Origin: a phage | Sequence record: PX441839.1 | Length of the DNA: 64,000 nt | Direction: 5' to 3' (one strand) | Shown here: positions 17,069-54,516 of the stretch, in pieces | How positions within the stretch are numbered: the first letter of the stretch is position 1 | How the letters are laid out: each line of letters opens with the position of its first letter | Made by a program: the position numbers and the translations under genes | The notes under the pieces: model-generated | Seen by the model: only the letters and a program-made list of their open reading frames with translations | Databases searched by the model: none | What the model was told of the DNA's origin: nothing

Positions 17069-17659
17069 TTATGCAAGTTCGAAATAGCGATCACGAGCCA
17101 TTGAGTATCTCGGTTCTGCGATCCCAGTTCCGTAGACGTACCACCTTCCAGTGGTGGAGATTCTCCCACCATACGAACCGAGTTCAAGGTCTCCATACAT
17201 CAAGTCAAAACCGATGTCAGTGTCAATAACCTTTAATCGACCATCATTCAGTCCCAGTTGGTTGTAAAACAAATCTTTAGCCATGAAAGCCCACTCACAG
17301 GCTTCCATCTCTGCACTATCCTTGTCGTTTGTTCTTGCATAGGCAAATAGCTCCAACTTCAAGAAAATACTGTAATGAGTGTTGTCGCTCTCGCTTCGGA
17401 AGCAAGGCGTCAAAGCCATCAGCATCTCACCTGGGAATACCTCTCCGTCAATGTCCATCTGTAAGAAAGATTGTTCCGCAGATGCGACAAAGTAAGTTTC
17501 GTCGTGGTGTTTGTACCTAAAGTCAACACCTTCGACGGGTGCGGTATGTGACATCGCCTTATCACTCACACACATTGGGACTCGACAAGGGTCAAATCCC
17601 TTTTTCTTCCAATACTCTGTTGCCCATAAGATTGAATTCATACTTATTGAATGTTTCAT
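17069..17659 (-). CDS. hypothetical enzyme with class-II aaRS-like motifs (196 aa)
   Basis: CFRSE...F resembles class II motif 2 (fRxE) and YGTGIAEPR resembles motif 3 (GxGxGxxR); first gene of a translationally coupled three-gene unit. Confidence 0.5.
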   Translation of the reverse strand: MKHSISMNSILWATEYWKKKGFDPCRVPMCVSDKAMSHTAPVEGVDFRYKHHDETYFVASAEQSFLQMDIDGEVFPGEMLMALTPCFRSESDNTHYSIFLKLELFAYARTNDKDSAEMEACEWAFMAKDLFYNQLGLNDGRLKVIDTDIGFDLMYGDLELGSYGGRISTTGRWYVYGTGIAEPRYSMARDRYFELA

Positions 17660-18201
17660 TATTTCCTAGCTCCGCTCTCAAATGCCCTTTTTGTTACCTT
17701 TGCCATAGCTTCGAGGTCTTCCATTGTCACTGTTGGGTGATTTTTCTCAAGGTATCCCTTTATTGCCCCAATAATGTCACTAAGTTCTTGCAGGGCCATC
17801 AGTTTGACACCTTGTTTCTCAGCATCCATGAATTCCTGCACCTCTTCCATCACTTTCCCTGAGGTCCCGTATGCATGTTTTTCTATATCTACAAGGTGGT
17901 AGCCTGGTGACTTTTTACTTGGACTTACCTTATCTCTTACTTTTACCCAAAACACCCCATTTCGAGTGTCGGTGCTAACAACTGTTCGGATGTAGATCCA
18001 TTCCCCAAGCTCCTCCTTCACTTTGAATCTGTGCCCTGGTTCAATGGTATCCATATCGATAATCTCATCGTGACTAATTTCATCAATGACCGACACAAGT
18101 ACGTTGGGAAGCAGTTTGCATTCATTTTCCATCAGCGATGCTGAAAGCATCACCTCCAGGGCACTCATTTCCATACCTATCTCCTCTTTTAATTTTTCCA
18201 A
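17659..18201 (-). CDS. MazG-like all-alpha NTP pyrophosphohydrolase domain protein (180 aa)
   Basis: C-terminal EEVQEFMDAEKQG ... LQELSDIIGAI matches the MazG acidic helical pattern; start overlaps the downstream gene. Confidence 0.45.
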   Translation of the reverse strand: MEKLKEEIGMEMSALEVMLSASLMENECKLLPNVLVSVIDEISHDEIIDMDTIEPGHRFKVKEELGEWIYIRTVVSTDTRNGVFWVKVRDKVSPSKKSPGYHLVDIEKHAYGTSGKVMEEVQEFMDAEKQGVKLMALQELSDIIGAIKGYLEKNHPTVTMEDLEAMAKVTKRAFESGARK

Positions 18202-19304
18202 GCCATATCTTGAACCTTAAGAATAACTTCTTCTGCTAACTTCTTGTCTGAATTATACGGCAACGAAGTAGACTTGTAAAGGACATTTCGAACGTACTCG
18301 TCCTTTCCCTCTGCCCACTCAAGAATCTCATCGAGAGTCTTCGATCCATTTCGGATTGCCAATAATTCATCAGCATCTTCACGGAACACATTGACTTCCC
18401 CTGTTGTGAGGATCTCTTCCGCCATTCGCATCAGGCGAACAAGGTGCATAGCGTGTTTTGTGTCGTAACCGAATTTAACCTCCAATTCATGGCGTGTGGC
18501 ATTACGGTTTTTCTTCCAATTCCAATAGTTCTTGTGCTTTTCTTTTGCCTGTTTGTGTTCTTCCCGCATGTACTTAACAAAGAACAGCGGAGGCTGGCGC
18601 TTAATACTGTCTGGGATCTCTTCATACACAACCTTCCTGATAGAACCATCTGGATTGAACATAGGTGGAACATTGTCCCGATGGTCAGGAACAACAGCAA
18701 AATGATCTGCACCAAGTGGAATCATTGAACAAACCCCAACCATGTTATTCAGTTTCCTCATGAAGTCCTCGTGCTTGAGCACAGGAACAGACAAATAACT
18801 TTGCACAAGTCTGAAAAACTCCAACTGACTTGGTGCTTTTTCTGGTTGCGGGTTGTTAATCCACTTATCGTGACCTCGGATACGCTTAAGTTGGCTCATT
18901 GCATACCCGCTAAATCTGTGCGCCACGTTGGAATTCAAAAAGGTATGAGCATTGTCCCGAAGAATATCAAATTCCGGCGTTCTGTACAGGATCTCTTGGT
19001 CCCTAGTGAATAGGGTCTCAATGATGTTTGGGTTCATATCCAGAAACAAACTCATGAACGTATTCAATTCATAAACTTTACCATCCTCTGCTCCAGGGAT
19101 GTTTAGTTCAGTTACCTTCTTGAAGGGTGTCCGCACAACACCCGGTTTTGCAACAAAGATACCTCGGATATCTGTATCACTCGTCGGAAGAGATGTACCG
19201 TAAGCCTTCGATCCTGACAAGTTTAGCATGACCACTTTTGAAACGTCTGGATGCTTTTCCAGACTTGCTACCATACTTAATACCTCTCCATTCGGAACAC
19301 ACAT
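18189..19304 (-). CDS. Pol-beta-superfamily nucleotidyltransferase (about 371 aa)
   Basis: hG[GS] ... [DE]h[DE]h signature LSGSKAYGTSLPTSDTDIRGIF; ATG at 19304 preceded by GGAGGAGG RBS. Confidence 0.6.
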   Translation of the reverse strand: MCVPNGEVLSMVASLEKHPDVSKVVMLNLSGSKAYGTSLPTSDTDIRGIFVAKPGVVRTPFKKVTELNIPGAEDGKVYELNTFMSLFLDMNPNIIETLFTRDQEILYRTPEFDILRDNAHTFLNSNVAHRFSGYAMSQLKRIRGHDKWINNPQPEKAPSQLEFFRLVQSYLSVPVLKHEDFMRKLNNMVGVCSMIPLGADHFAVVPDHRDNVPPMFNPDGSIRKVVYEEIPDSIKRQPPLFFVKYMREEHKQAKEKHKNYWNWKKNRNATRHELEVKFGYDTKHAMHLVRLMRMAEEILTTGEVNVFREDADELLAIRNGSKTLDEILEWAEGKDEYVRNVLYKSTSLPYNSDKKLAEEVILKVQDMAWKN

Positions 19305-19400
19305 GTTTACCTCCTCCAATTCGACCATCGTATAAATCACAGAGGCCACACCCTCTGCTTTTTAATTTTTTATAGTTAGAACAGTTCTCGCAACTACGTG

Positions 19401-20468: not shown

Positions 20469-20937
20469 CCTTTAAGCGAAGCTTTTTAATATTCACCAAA
20501 AGCTCTCGCTCACCCTCTGTAAAGTAACGGGTATCCCCATCTTCCGTGAGGTATGTAAATGGGGCATTACCCTCCTCGTCAAGTTTAGAGGAATACATAT
20601 ACTCTGGCAGTACAATACAGGCCGCAGTTAATGCACCATTCAAAGCATCCTCTGTTTCCTGGAAAAAGGAAGATGGCAGGTGCTTGTTCTTGTCGAAGAT
20701 GTCGATAAGGTCGAATATCTTCTGCTGATAACCACCATTAAGTACGATGATTGTCTTATCTGTGGATGCCCACTGTTTTGCCATCCTCACAGCAGCATGG
20801 CCTTGGTTTACCGCAGAGTTGTACTTATGCATAAGTTCAACAATGGCGTGAGCAGACTGAATACCTGCATGGATACCTGCGATATACTGATTAACAACAC
20901 AATACATACGGGTTGACATATTTCTCTCCTTAATCAT
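20461..20937 (-). CDS. putative peptidyl-tRNA hydrolase, PTH2-like (158 aa)
   Basis: MYCVVNQYIAGIHAGIQSAHAIVEL and QW...KTIIVL follow the PTH2 pattern (M.LVVR...G.AAQ.SHA / W...K.VV); sits directly before the CCA enzyme. Confidence 0.45.
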   Translation of the reverse strand: MIKERNMSTRMYCVVNQYIAGIHAGIQSAHAIVELMHKYNSAVNQGHAAVRMAKQWASTDKTIIVLNGGYQQKIFDLIDIFDKNKHLPSSFFQETEDALNGALTAACIVLPEYMYSSKLDEEGNAPFTYLTEDGDTRYFTEGERELLVNIKKLRLKGE

Positions 20938-22243
20938 TTAACCATTTTGGTGTATATGCGTATTGCAAATTACGAATATTCTTTTCTGTAATATCTGACT
21001 TAGCTTTTAGGATACCTCTTGCAACATAGCCTACTTTCAGACTCTTTACCTTTTGCTGGATAACCTCTGGTCGTCCTTTGAACTCCTCTGCGATCTCTCT
21101 GCTCTTTTTAGATATCTCTGACCTGTTTCTTACCAACTCCGCAACAGCACCGAGCAAGATATAAGGTTGATCATAGGCATCGTGAATTTTTGTAGGCCCT
21201 CGTCCACGAGCATCGCAAATACACGCCTCTACAAATTTCATTATAAACTCTTGGTCTTTCTCACCTCTCAACCGAGAAATTAAATCATATACCTTTTTCG
21301 GCCTCATGTCCAACACCCTGTGAAGTCGGGTATGATCGTCACATACCCTCCAAGCAAGGTCCATCCATTTGTTTGGAACTCCGAACCTGTCTCCCAACGA
21401 TTTTACGTAACCAAGTCCCTCAAACTCATGACCTCGTAGATGACCATGATCCCAGTACATAACCTTTCCAAGATCGTGGCACAATACTGCCCATTTCACC
21501 TCCGGTGCTGACTTAAGCCCTTGTGCGTAGTCCAAGCAAAGAAGGGTGTGTACATAGGCATCTCCTTCTGGGTGGTGAGCCTCAGGTTGCTTAACCCCTT
21601 TAAGATTATTTACCTCTGGCATTTCTCCAAGTTCGCACAAGGTGTCTATCATTATTGACGGTTTGTTCAAAGAAGATTGGTCTTCAAAACACTTACGGAT
21701 CTCCGCCATTTTTCTTTCTTTTGGGAGAGCCGCAAGGTTTTCCTTTGCTCGGTGTGCCAAAAGAACAGTGCTTGCTGCAACTTGGAAAGTTCCACCGTAC
21801 CTGGCGAACAATCTTGCCAGTCGGTAAATTCGCAAAGGGTCATCTCGTAATGTGTCACGGGAGACATGTCTAAGGACTTTCCTTTCTATGTCCTTTGCCC
21901 CATTAAAAGGATCAACATATTCTCCGGTTTCCAAATCTTTTGCAATCGCATTTATAGTAAGATCTCGTCTCTTTAAGTCTTCTTCGATTGTTACATCTGG
22001 GCTGAAAACTACCTCAAAATCATGGTATCCTGCTCCAGTTGATCGTTCGGTACGTGCCAAGGCGTACTCTTCCTTGGTTTCTGGGTGAAGATAAACAGGG
22101 AATGCAGCACCAACTTGCTCAAACCCCATTTCAATCATGTCCTCGTGGGTATATCCAACACAAACATAATCCTTATCTTTTGGCTCCAGACCCATCAGTT
22201 CGTCACGGACGGCACCTCCAACCAAGTAGATCTTCTTATTCAC
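20930..22243 (-). CDS. cca: tRNA nucleotidyltransferase (CCA-adding enzyme) with HD domain
   Basis: N-terminal LVGGAVRDELMG ... DKDYV head-domain motifs and a C-terminal HD-type region; 437 aa. Confidence 0.8.
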   Translation of the reverse strand: MNKKIYLVGGAVRDELMGLEPKDKDYVCVGYTHEDMIEMGFEQVGAAFPVYLHPETKEEYALARTERSTGAGYHDFEVVFSPDVTIEEDLKRRDLTINAIAKDLETGEYVDPFNGAKDIERKVLRHVSRDTLRDDPLRIYRLARLFARYGGTFQVAASTVLLAHRAKENLAALPKERKMAEIRKCFEDQSSLNKPSIMIDTLCELGEMPEVNNLKGVKQPEAHHPEGDAYVHTLLCLDYAQGLKSAPEVKWAVLCHDLGKVMYWDHGHLRGHEFEGLGYVKSLGDRFGVPNKWMDLAWRVCDDHTRLHRVLDMRPKKVYDLISRLRGEKDQEFIMKFVEACICDARGRGPTKIHDAYDQPYILLGAVAELVRNRSEISKKSREIAEEFKGRPEVIQQKVKSLKVGYVARGILKAKSDITEKNIRNLQYAYTPKWLND

Positions 22244-52347: not shown

Positions 52348-52426
52348 GCGGGTGTATCTCATCCGTCTTCTAAACGGACGTTAACCGAGTAATTGGAGTA
52401 TGGGGGTTCGAATCCCTCCACCCGCG
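52348..52426 (+). tRNA. atypical tRNA-like gene with anticodon-type hairpin UCU (Arg?)
   Basis: Canonical T-arm ggggg-ttcgaat-ccctc and acceptor gcgggtg/cacccgc, but no D-arm, a 23-nt extra segment, no CCA, and the acceptor extends to a perfect 16-bp stem (52339-52354 / 52419-52434). Confidence 0.4.
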
Positions 52427-53397: not shown

Positions 53398-53428
53398 GAC
53401 CCTTCGGGGTCTTTGAGTTTTCTTTTGA
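53398..53428 (+). terminator. rho-independent terminator
   Basis: gaccc-ttcg-gggtc followed by tttgagttttctttt. Confidence 0.5.
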
Positions 53429-53457
53429 CGATTATTTTCGTACAAAAGAGAATTTAA

Positions 53458-53544
53458 GCCAGGTTATACCGTAGGGGTAGCGGAGGAGACTGTAAATCTC
53501 TGGTCATTGCGACTCGGGTGGTTCGACGCCATCACCTGGCACCA
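53458..53544 (+). tRNA. tRNA-Tyr (anticodon GUA), type II
   Basis: Acceptor gccaggt/acctggc, anticodon arm ggaga-ctgtaaa-tctct, long variable arm, CCA encoded. Confidence 0.7.
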
Positions 53545-53549
53545 AATAT

Positions 53550-53639
53550 GGAGAGTTGGCAGAGCGGCTGAATGCACCTGACTTGAAATCAGGCGACCGT
53601 TAACTCGGTCCGTGGGTTCAAATCCTACGCTCTCCGCCA
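53550..53639 (+). tRNA. tRNA-Ser (anticodon UGA), type II
   Basis: Tracks E. coli tRNA-Ser: ggagagt-tg-gcagagcggctgaatgc ... cctga-cttgaaa-tcagg ... gtggg-ttcaaat-cctac ... gctctcc-g-cca. Confidence 0.85.
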
Positions 53640-53720
53640 AATATCGCCCCTTATATAAAAGAACACCTGCGCGGCTGGAAAAACCCACTCAACAGTTCTT
53701 GAAAAGGGGCAACAATTTAC

Positions 53721-53798
53721 GGATCATTAGCTACAATTGGTTAGAGCGGCTCACTGTTAATGAGACGGTTCGTGGTTCAAGTCCACGATGATCCGCCA
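53721..53798 (+). tRNA. tRNA-Asn (anticodon GUU)
   Basis: Acceptor ggatcat/atgatcc, anticodon loop ctgttaa, T-arm cgtgg-ttcaagt-ccacg, CCA encoded. Confidence 0.8.
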
Positions 53799-53805
53799 AA
53801 CAATA

Positions 53806-53950
53806 GAAGGGTAACTTAAAGGCGGGTGTCCTGCCACTGGCCTCCAAAACCAGTCGTAAGGGGTTAGATTCCTCACTCTTCTGCCAAGTCGGGGTGTGCG
53901 CCAAATAAGAGCGGGTTAGCAACTGTGTTGTAGATTAGTCTACCACCCCA
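53806..53950 (+). ncRNA. degenerate tRNA-like sequences / possible small stable RNAs within the tRNA cluster
   Basis: Hairpins actgg-cctccaaaa-ccagt and gtaga-ttag-tctac plus tRNA-like termini (agaaggg ... ctcttct-g-cca), but no canonical cloverleaf. Confidence 0.3.
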
Positions 53951-53960
53951 CACAATAAGA

Positions 53961-54036
53961 AGTCCTATAGTTTCAGCGGTTAAAATACTCGCCTGTCACG
54001 CGAGAGTCACGGGTTCGAATCCCGTTAGGACTGCCA
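53961..54036 (+). tRNA. tRNA-Asp (anticodon GUC)
   Basis: Acceptor agtccta/taggact, anticodon arm ctcgc-ctgtcac-gcgag, T-arm acggg-ttcgaat-cccgt, CCA encoded. Confidence 0.8.
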
Positions 54037-54043
54037 TTTCTGA

Positions 54044-54119
54044 TGGAGATTAGCTCAGTAGGTAGAGCAAGCGACCGATAATCGCTGGGTCACTGGTTCA
54101 AGTCCAGTATCTCCAACCA
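54044..54119 (+). tRNA. tRNA-Ile (anticodon GAU), with unusual C at position 33
   Basis: Acceptor tggagat/atctcca, D-arm gctc-agtaggta-gagc, anticodon arm agcga-ccgataa-tcgct, T-arm actgg-ttcaagt-ccagt, CCA encoded. Confidence 0.65.
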
Positions 54120-54124
54120 AATAC

Positions 54125-54201
54125 CTCCGTGTAGCTCAGTCTGGTAGAGCGATTGCTTTGGGAGCAATAGGTCCAACGTTCGAGTCGTTGTACGGAGACC
54201 A
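54125..54201 (+). tRNA. tRNA-Pro (anticodon UGG)
   Basis: Acceptor ctccgtg/tacggag, anticodon arm attgc-tttggga-gcaat, T-arm caacg-ttcgagt-cgttg, CCA encoded. Confidence 0.85.
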
Positions 54202-54204
54202 AAT

Positions 54205-54279
54205 TGGGGATTAGCCAAGCGGTAAGGCACGAGGCTTTGATCCTTGTATGCGGAGGTTCGAATCCTCCATCCCCAGCCA
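54205..54279 (+). tRNA. tRNA-Gln (anticodon UUG)
   Basis: Acceptor tggggat/atcccca, anticodon loop ctttgat, T-arm ggagg-ttcgaat-cctcc, CCA encoded. Confidence 0.8.
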
Positions 54280-54284
54280 AATAA

Positions 54285-54361
54285 GCGTCCTTAGTGTCAG
54301 TGGTCTAACACTCCATCCTTCCAAGTTGGAACCACGGGTTCGAATCCCGTAGGACGCTCCA
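54285..54361 (+). tRNA. tRNA-Gly (anticodon UCC)
   Basis: Acceptor gcgtcct/aggacgc, anticodon loop cttccaa, T-arm acggg-ttcgaat-cccgt, CCA encoded. Confidence 0.8.
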
Positions 54362-54489
54362 AAATTACACCTCCGGTGGTCAGGGAACTGGCAATCAGGA
54401 GGTTTTTCTTTATGTGTCCGTGGTGGTTCGGACTTTATCCCACCAGAATTCTTATAATAATAAAAAATATCTCCTCTCCTTCGCCTTAG

Positions 54490-54516
54490 GCCCTCCATTA
54501 CGGAGGGCTTTTTTAT
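54490..54516 (+). terminator. rho-independent terminator after the tRNA cluster
   Basis: gccctcc-attac-ggagggc followed by ttttttatt. Confidence 0.55.

Follow-up and report, generated by a model that had tools for sequence, protein, structure and literature searches.

A tRNA array in a Vequintavirinae phage contains, in our analysis, a non-canonical tRNA gene of the 8/4 type, here for tryptophan, which is widespread in phages and almost always unannotated. The window that we analyzed is a stretch of 64,000 nucleotides from sequence record PX441839.1, and the gene occupies its positions 53805-53886, within the 162 nt (53799-53960) that separate tRNA-Asn (53721-53798) from tRNA-Asp (53961-54036) as these are placed by ARAGORN. 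Reading from sequence, we give a probability of about two in three (0.68) to the proposal that 53805-53886 is a Trp(CCA) tRNA gene with a fold other than the cloverleaf and that the remaining nucleotides, 53887-53960, are a spacer without function.

The initial annotation had treated most of this interval as a single element of about 150 nt with tRNA-like termini and stable hairpins, too long for the gaps of this array and impossible to fold as a standard tRNA. The long interval without a recognized tRNA is real. ARAGORN, at default and relaxed bacterial settings, reported no credible tRNA in 53799-53960, and only its mitochondrial mode returned a D-armless ‘mtRNA-Trp(cca)’ at 53820-53886. Likewise, the Rfam tRNA model RF00005 gave no match in the interval at an E-value of 10 or less, and the best Rfam match there, to tRNA-Sec (RF01852), reached 23.3 bits where the gathering score is 47. 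The absence of an ordinary cloverleaf therefore held when tRNA finders were run. The acceptor-like ends are also present (AGAAGGG at 53805-53811, beginning one base before the proposed start at 53806, and CTCTTCT-G-CCA at 53876-53886), as are both of the hairpins that had been quoted, the first being ACTGG/CCAGT around CCTCCAAAA (53836-53854) and the second GTAGA-TTAG-TCTAC. Their supposed stability did not survive comparison with shuffled sequence, as the folding energies of the first and second parts of the interval are thermodynamically ordinary (z = -0.87 for 53805-53886 and -0.60 for the rest). Sequence alone is thus no proof of a structured RNA, and because these scores are ordinary, structural significance has to come from comparison with relatives rather than from energy. 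Finally, a BLAST search with the whole interval split it into two unrelated parts, so that the idea of one continuous element had to be abandoned.

The first of these parts belongs to a well-defined family. By BLAST, 53809-53895 is ~77-82% identical to homologs in Seunavirus, and its 3' half is ~88% identical to sequences in Mydovirus and Avunavirus; this half also has weaker matches, at 76-80%, among the canonical tRNA-Trp genes that Bacillus and Gordonia phages carry. Copies were gathered from phages PVP-SE1, KE23, NDO71, BIS47, Av-05, 18-1-2, UPEC06 and CR9, and further from KaOmega, F1M1E, POP15, PBES 02, CR8, CR3, DU_PP_I and P7_Pc. A covariance model, R1, was built from 12 distinct sequences, and the later tabulation comprises 22. 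With R1 each phage yielded a single copy, scoring 74-95 bits, with ordinary tRNAs at most at 41, and the copy in the window scored 83.2 bits (E about 5e-21); scores across all members run from 66 to 95 bits, with only 43 for the divergent member L071. The gene is present once per phage in Seunavirus, Mydovirus, Avunavirus, Certrevirus and an unclassified Vequintavirinae phage. Furthermore, family members occur in unrelated metagenomic phage contigs, one of them 221 kb long, and in hypersaline or brine samples. A sample of IMG/VR added L116 (90 bits) as well as the distant L071, and a pattern scan of IMG/VR returned known isolates only. Among the 107 phage tRNA-Trp-like genes in that sample, only five have acceptor and anticodon stems that lie 24-27 nt rather than 18-19 nt apart, and the family is therefore a minority form of phage tRNA-Trp. 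In the searchable literature library that we covered, we found no description of this architecture for tRNA-Trp.

Annotation of the family is sparse. Of the public phage genomes that contain the gene, well over a hundred in number, essentially one has it annotated, that of PVP-SE1, whose depositors labeled the homolog (L002:1512-1592) as tRNA-Trp. In almost every other record there is either nothing at this place or an overlapping short ‘hypothetical protein’, so that some records cover the gene with spurious protein-coding predictions. Two such coding sequences run on the opposite strand, at L006:1100-1246 in UPEC06 and L018:398-580 in F1M1E, and are likely to be annotation artefacts. A scan of bacterial genome contigs gave five matches, and the three that could be parsed (two Amycolatopsis records and a deltaproteobacterial metagenome-assembled genome) have a compact D arm without the long connector described below. 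This compact arm is common in tRNA-Trp genes of phages and actinobacteria (L042, L044 from Amycolatopsis, L027, L067, L099 and others): positions 8-26 take up 15-16 nt, with a stem of 4-5 bp and GG in a loop of 3-5 nt, and the extra connector is missing. Such genes may represent an evolutionary intermediate toward the hairpin form.

Read from the 5' end, the proposed fold consists of an 8-bp acceptor stem, A9, a 2-bp helix formed by nucleotides 10-11 with 47-46, an unpaired connector (N-U-A-A-N), a D hairpin set flush against the anticodon stem (26:44 to 30:40), C45, A48 and A49, and a 4-bp T arm (Table 1). Modeled in this way, two successive three-way junctions would replace the one four-way junction of the standard tRNA. 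The family alignment supports this arrangement, with 85.7% of cells paired compared to 69.9% in shuffles and 43-53% in slid controls, double changes in 13/22 pairs, and a covariation score that none of 500 shuffles reached. Moreover, RNAalifold, which was run without the proposed structure, arrived at this D hairpin as well as the T stem of 4 bp, 26:44 and 8:65. In the acceptor stem covariation is seen at pairs 1-3 and 6-7, and all cells of the T stem are paired, with a compensatory exchange of G-C for A-U or C-G at one pair. The D hairpin provides the clearest example of replacement with pairing kept: all six pairs have changed on both sides, and whole stems differ between lineages (TTGCAG/CTGCAA, TTGCTC/GAGCAA, TTGTCA/TGGCAA, CTTCAC/GTGAAG and GGAGTT/AACTCC, with GGCGGG/CCTGCC in the window). 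Its loop keeps GG in all relatives, and the Rfam tRNA-Sec model aligns the hairpin to the Sec D arm.

Two further elements define the core. Nucleotides 8 and 65 are paired in 22/22 sequences (U-A in 20, U·G in L116 and G-C in L071), and 49:65 forms a standard pair in 0/22, being A·A, G·A, A·G or A·C; the acceptor/T branch is therefore 8/4 and not 7/5. For the short helix, connector and variable-loop positions were compared in a grid scan, and the fraction paired among 11 distinct combinations was 1.00 with three pair types at 10:47 and 0.91 with four pair types at 11:46. In a fixed-length extract, 95.5% of the cells of this helix were paired; slid controls reached 4-41% and shuffles 63%, with 0/500 equal to the observed value. 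The grid scan lent no support to a third pair, 12:45, or to other pairs between connector and variable loop. The connector itself is strongly conserved, with T13, A14 and A15 invariant in the first alignment of 12 sequences and kept in 21/22 of the final set, the exception being L035, which has CTTGG; this insertion extends the segment from 8 to 26 to 25 nt in the window.

The anticodon arm is less unusual than it had looked, the real oddity of the gene being its D arm, its core and its acceptor/T architecture. The stem has four Watson-Crick pairs followed by a C31·A39 mismatch and is extended at its other end by A26:U44, with 27:43 being C-G in 22/22 sequences. Position 31:39 is C·A in 11 sequences, A·C in 5, G-C in 3, U·G in 2 and U-A in 1, as opposed to the general phage tRNA-Trp sample, where it is U-A in 85/107. 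The inner seven bases of the loop always read YU-CCA-AM and are invariant except for Y32 and position 38, so the apparent 9-nt loop is the ordinary 7-nt loop of tRNA-Trp. Among the possibilities raised initially, a tRNA with a 9-nt anticodon loop thus came closest for 53805-53886, with the correction that the loop is CUCCAAA, and an A/C mismatch at 31:39 can be isosteric with a wobble pair. A last peculiarity concerns the elbow. Only the window and its close relative, Salmonella phage SSBI34, have TGT in the D loop (YGG elsewhere) and TTAGATT in the T loop (TTCGAYT elsewhere), and the joint change of G19 to U and C56 to A in this lineage is compatible with a Watson-Crick U19:A56 elbow pair.

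Several observations weigh against this interpretation. Both 8:65 and the helix 10-11:47-46 were found post hoc; the former varies in only two lineages, one of which is the distant 43-bit member, and the latter rests on about 5-6 independent lineages, with 11:46 broken (C·C) in one lineage of Avunavirus. The double change at 19:56 is a single event, 31:39 is a C·A or A·C mismatch in most members (16/22), and within the acceptor stem 4:69 is unpaired in 10/13 and 5:68 in 6/13 family sequences, although the window copy is fully paired. Moreover, the promoter-like and terminator-like sites around the array are consensus matches only, and promoter-like sites are no more numerous than expected from shuffled sequence.

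The identity of the gene follows from its most conserved positions. The anticodon CCA (C34 C35 A36) and G73 are the major determinants for the bacterial tryptophanyl-tRNA synthetase (TrpRS). The window copy has both, and G73, A9 and the anticodon are kept in 22/22 sequences; the 3' CCA is encoded in all except 18-1-2, which has CAA, and L071. When the arrays of SSBI34 (50 kb scanned), PVP-SE1, BIS47, L030, L025 and L031 were searched with ARAGORN, no other tRNA-Trp turned up among their 10-24 tRNAs, which otherwise form nearly complete sets, and it is for this reason that we assign the family gene to the tryptophan slot. Starting 6 nt after the CCA of tRNA-Asn, with a 5' flank that fits the array, the gene would most likely share a + strand transcript with the other array tRNAs and undergo the same processing as they do. 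The host TrpRS would charge the mature tRNA, which would read UGG and complete the tRNA set of the phage. In this model the eight acceptor pairs and four T-stem pairs would give a branch of 12 bp, the length accepted by EF-Tu, the 6-bp D hairpin would resemble the one in tRNA-Sec, the 3-nt loop being still able to reach the T loop, and the 5' strand of the former D stem (nt 10-11) would pair with nucleotides 47-46 of the variable loop. A precedent exists, as E. coli processes and charges 8/4 tRNAs that have Sec-like D arms and employs them in translation (PMC5389517).

Comparison with known systems places the family between several of them. It shares with canonical tRNA-Trp(CCA) the loop CUCCAAA, G73, A9, an encoded CCA, a TΨC-type T loop and a position in a phage tRNA array, and the window gene follows the canonical rules for the anticodon arm (7-nt loop, U33, purine 37). 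It departs from the canonical form in lacking the 10-13:22-25 D stem, as there is no partner strand for nucleotides 10-13; in having eight unpaired or otherwise-paired nucleotides followed by a 6-bp hairpin where a 2-nt link joins the acceptor and D stems; and in an 8/4 rather than a 7/5 branch with nucleotides 10-11 paired to the variable loop. Of the canonical elbow pairs, G18:Ψ55 and G19:C56, relatives keep GG and C56 whereas the window has G-U with A56. Another likeness is to the (8/4) tRNAs and allo-tRNAs, which have the same 12-bp branch, a Sec-like long D stem and a very short loop, and of which (8/4) tRNA-Ser and tRNA-His occur in phage tRNA clusters (Mukai et al. 2017, PMC5389517). 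Those tRNAs have long variable arms of the Ser type or His identity, and ‘Trp’ has 0 occurrences in that paper. In contrast, the family has a variable region of 5-7 nt when nt 49 is counted (8 in L071 and about 5-6 in the window), and it adds the 5-nt connector and the helix 10-11:47-46. With tRNA-Sec (RF01852) the family shares G73, an extended acceptor stem, a 6-bp D stem with a 3-4-nt loop and, as the model aligns it, a T stem of 4 bp, but its anticodon is CCA and not UCA, it has no long variable arm, and its branch is 12 bp and not 13. Finally, the Hirsh G24A, A9C and Blastocrithidia-like variants of tRNA-Trp (PMC13092985) are the same tRNA species with changes in the hinge or D stem. The family differs in that A9 is kept, position 24 has no equivalent and the D stem has been replaced rather than point-mutated; moreover, the Blastocrithidia-like 4-bp anticodon stem has 27:43 unpaired, whereas in the family the terminal pair left open, in the window and most other members, is 31:39.

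The conservation of charging and decoding features bears directly on the question of whether this RNA decodes at all. A tRNA-like decoy for a tRNA-targeting nuclease, or a regulator binding TrpRS or other tRNA-binding proteins, would accommodate a core that departs strongly from the cloverleaf and the acceptor-stem mismatches of many members, and we consider it unlikely. The substrates of retron Eco2, which protects against Vequintavirinae, include host tRNA-Trp, and Eco2 nicks C-rich 3' strands of acceptor stems (PMC12916289), as opposed to the U-rich strand of the phage gene. However, what the family conserves most is the anticodon loop, G73, CCA, the 12-bp branch and the predicted elbow pair, and the gene is the only one of Trp type in otherwise nearly complete tRNA sets. 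Furthermore, a decoy needs no exact Trp anticodon loop unless a nuclease targets it, and we know of no nuclease that does so.

It is similarly doubtful that this is a phage tRNA-Trp re-engineered to read UGA, or one whose altered fold resists a tRNA-directed defense of the host. Taken by itself, the first of these possibilities, in which the Trp(CCA) tRNA would also read UGA through its remodeled hinge and, in most members, unpinned anticodon-stem bottom and so act as a structural opal suppressor, like the Hirsh, A9C and 4-bp-stem variants of tRNA-Trp, used by the phage for programmed readthrough or biased termination, is a little less likely again. The regions altered in the family, the hinge (nt 9-12, 23-26 and 44-45) and the length of the anticodon stem, are those that control C34·A wobble reading, and variants of tRNA-Trp unpinned at the bottom of this stem have been named as existing but unstudied (PMC13092985). 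Consistent with this, 31:39 is C·A or A·C in 16/22 family members compared to about 12/107 sampled phage tRNA-Trp genes. Some members nevertheless have a paired 31:39, and the features shown to cause readthrough are absent, with 27:43 closed and A9 kept in 22/22. TGA is moreover a normal stop in the window, where it ends 21/72 long open reading frames (ORFs). At all same-frame TGA junctions found, the downstream frame has its own start codon within 2-24 codons, and these junctions therefore look like separate genes; no readthrough genes were seen at them, and no readthrough product is known. With normal TGA usage and ordinary gene junctions, UGA recoding in the window was rejected.

The second part of the interval, 53887-53960, differs from the first in almost every respect. 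Its only BLAST homolog among 50,697 phage records is in SSBI34. Aligned to 392 array tRNAs, its best local score was 25 against a null of 21 ± 2; its fold is matched by 54/200 shuffles; and it has no Rfam match. The sole repeat in it is a 10-nt sequence, GCCAAATAAG, which recurs at 54276-54285, the end of the tRNA-Gln unit. In Certrevirus relatives the order is Asn-Glu-Trp-Asp, with tRNA-Asp directly after Trp, so that relative to them the window lacks Glu and has gained the spacer. From this absence of evidence we infer that it is probably a scar of recombination by cassette shuffling, or a decayed remnant; decayed tRNA genes, one of the initial suggestions, may thus apply to this part. A specific version, in which the spacer is a relic of tRNA-Gln with its anticodon arm deleted, like the Gln that follows Trp in PVP-SE1 and Av-05, was rejected on the alignment score above. 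In two relatives, further unannotated gaps of 100-150 nt follow the Trp gene directly (L009:2240-2354 in KaOmega and L003:1594-1747 in NDO71); that of KaOmega has acceptor-like ends (TTGAGGTG...CATCTCAA-AACCA), and both may hold further non-canonical tRNA-like genes.

The tRNA cluster of phage T4 encodes small stable RNAs, species 1 and 2, which do not look like tRNAs and are co-located with phage tRNA genes. That the spacer is a functional small RNA of this kind, or a minimal tRNA-like molecule processed from the array, is improbable. In its favor, it shares strand and transcription unit with the tRNAs, it can form an acceptor-like stem (GGGGTG/CACCCC) directly beside a T-arm-like inner hairpin (GTAGA-TTAG-TCTAC), and it ends in an AATAAG motif as do neighboring spacers. 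However, the near-identity of SSBI34 leaves conservation beyond judgment, the folding is ordinary, no similarity to any tRNA or Rfam family was found, and Certrevirus does without the spacer altogether. Neither part of the interval matches T4-like phages in the same 50,697 records, and the first part, unlike the T4 RNAs, has an anticodon arm and Trp identity; the small stable RNAs that had been suggested here are unsupported. For 53805-53886 itself, it is very improbable that a tRNA-Trp pseudogene is decaying as a passenger of the array, since its rejection by tRNA finders and the CAA and changed T loop of 18-1-2 are set against retention at one copy across several genera and unrelated contigs, compensatory changes in every helix, full replacement of the D-hairpin sequence with pairing kept, and the lack of an alternative tRNA-Trp.

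If the Trp(CCA) tRNA is indeed charged and used, nature would have provided a tRNA that functions in E. coli-type cells although it lacks the usual four-way junction; tryptophan would join the 8/4 class, which would also gain a new core pairing. This has a bearing on the design of orthogonal tRNAs and on how the hinge controls misreading of UGA by tRNA-Trp; should UGA reading prove true, the phage would possess a built-in opal suppressor that is independent of the anticodon. There is also a practical consequence. Because the gene is mostly unannotated, counts of phage tRNA repertoires wrongly list Trp as missing, and its carriers include candidates for therapy or biocontrol against Salmonella, Klebsiella, Cronobacter and E. 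coli.

Table 1. Positions of the tRNA-Trp gene and its parts, the adjoining spacer and signals flanking the array.
Feature	Positions	Strand	Description
Non-canonical tRNA-Trp(CCA) gene	53805-53886	+	82 nt including encoded CCA; covariance model R1
Acceptor stem, 5' strand	53805-53812	+	nt 1-8 (AGAAGGGT); pairs with 53875-53882
5' strand of 2-bp helix	53814-53815	+	nt 10-11 (AC); pairs with nt 47-46 (53857, 53856)
Connector	53816-53820	+	TTAAA, unpaired; family consensus N-U-A-A-N; none in canonical tRNAs
D hairpin	53821-53835	+	GGCGGG/TGT/CCTGCC; 6 bp, 3-nt loop
Anticodon arm	53836-53854	+	A26:U44 and CUGG/CCAG stem; mismatch C31 (53841)·A39 (53849)
Anticodon loop	53842-53848	+	CUCCAAA; anticodon CCA at 53844-53846
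Variable region	53855-53859	+	C45, G46, U47, A48, A49; G46/U47 pair with C11/A10
T arm	53860-53874	+	GGGG/TTAGATT/CCTC; 4-bp stem, 7-nt loop
Acceptor 3' strand and 3' end	53875-53886	+	A65, CTCTTCT, discriminator G73 (53883), CCA (53884-53886)
Orphan spacer	53887-53960	+	74 nt; common only to SSBI34
Complementary segments in spacer	53891-53896, 53944-53949	+	GGGGTG and CACCCC
tRNA-3'-end-like sequence in spacer	53899-53911	+	GCGCCA-AATAAG
Hairpin in spacer	53930-53943	+	GTAGA-TTAG-TCTAC
Promoter-like site	53425-53453	+	TTGACG-17-GAGAAT; just 5' of array; consensus match only
Terminator-like hairpin followed by T run	54488-54510	+	3' of last tRNA; consensus match only

The phage is near-identical to SSBI34 (99.4% over the region), whose record has no tRNA annotation. 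ARAGORN reports ten tRNAs in the window, eight of which form the array on the + strand (53458-54361); a further terminator-like hairpin, again a consensus match, lies 5' of it. Spacers within the array are otherwise 3-7 nt, not the 4-10 nt initially given, except for a second long gap of 81 nt (53640-53720) that had been overlooked. This gap, between tRNA-Ser and tRNA-Asn, is common only to SSBI34 and holds a long hairpin (GCCCCTT...AAGAAC...GTTCTT...AAGGGGC) with z = -3.0, a fold equaled by none of 200 shuffles. At 54205-54279 the window has tRNA-Gln(ttg) where SSBI34 has tRNA-Met(cat), which looks like a single-cassette swap within the array. Together with the homing endonuclease genes that lie among the array tRNAs of relatives, this difference indicates that such arrays are shuffled.

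Two ORFs on the - strand, 20930-22243 and 18189-19349, encode in turn PolyA_pol head and HD domains, of the CCA-adding-enzyme type, and an RlaP RNA-repair nucleotidyltransferase domain, so that the phage has tRNA maintenance enzymes beside its tRNAs. The ORF annotated in SSBI34 as a ‘putative serine tRNA ligase’ (17069-17659 in the window, - strand), which has these two as neighbors, was considered as a phage TrpRS and rejected, as it has no Pfam match. Other tRNAs in this subfamily appear unusual as well. ARAGORN reports 2-nt ‘(ga)’ anticodons in Mydovirus-type arrays (L030:3313-3387, and listed also for L013 and L012) and a 4-nt ‘(ggca)’ anticodon in PVP-SE1, which suggest unusual sizes of the anticodon loop. 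In the window itself, 52348-52426 was missed by ARAGORN and scores 38.4 bits, above threshold, with the Rfam tRNA model; by eye its anticodon loop reads CTTCTAA (UCU, Arg), the D region looks odd and the variable region long, and it may be another non-standard tRNA of this phage.

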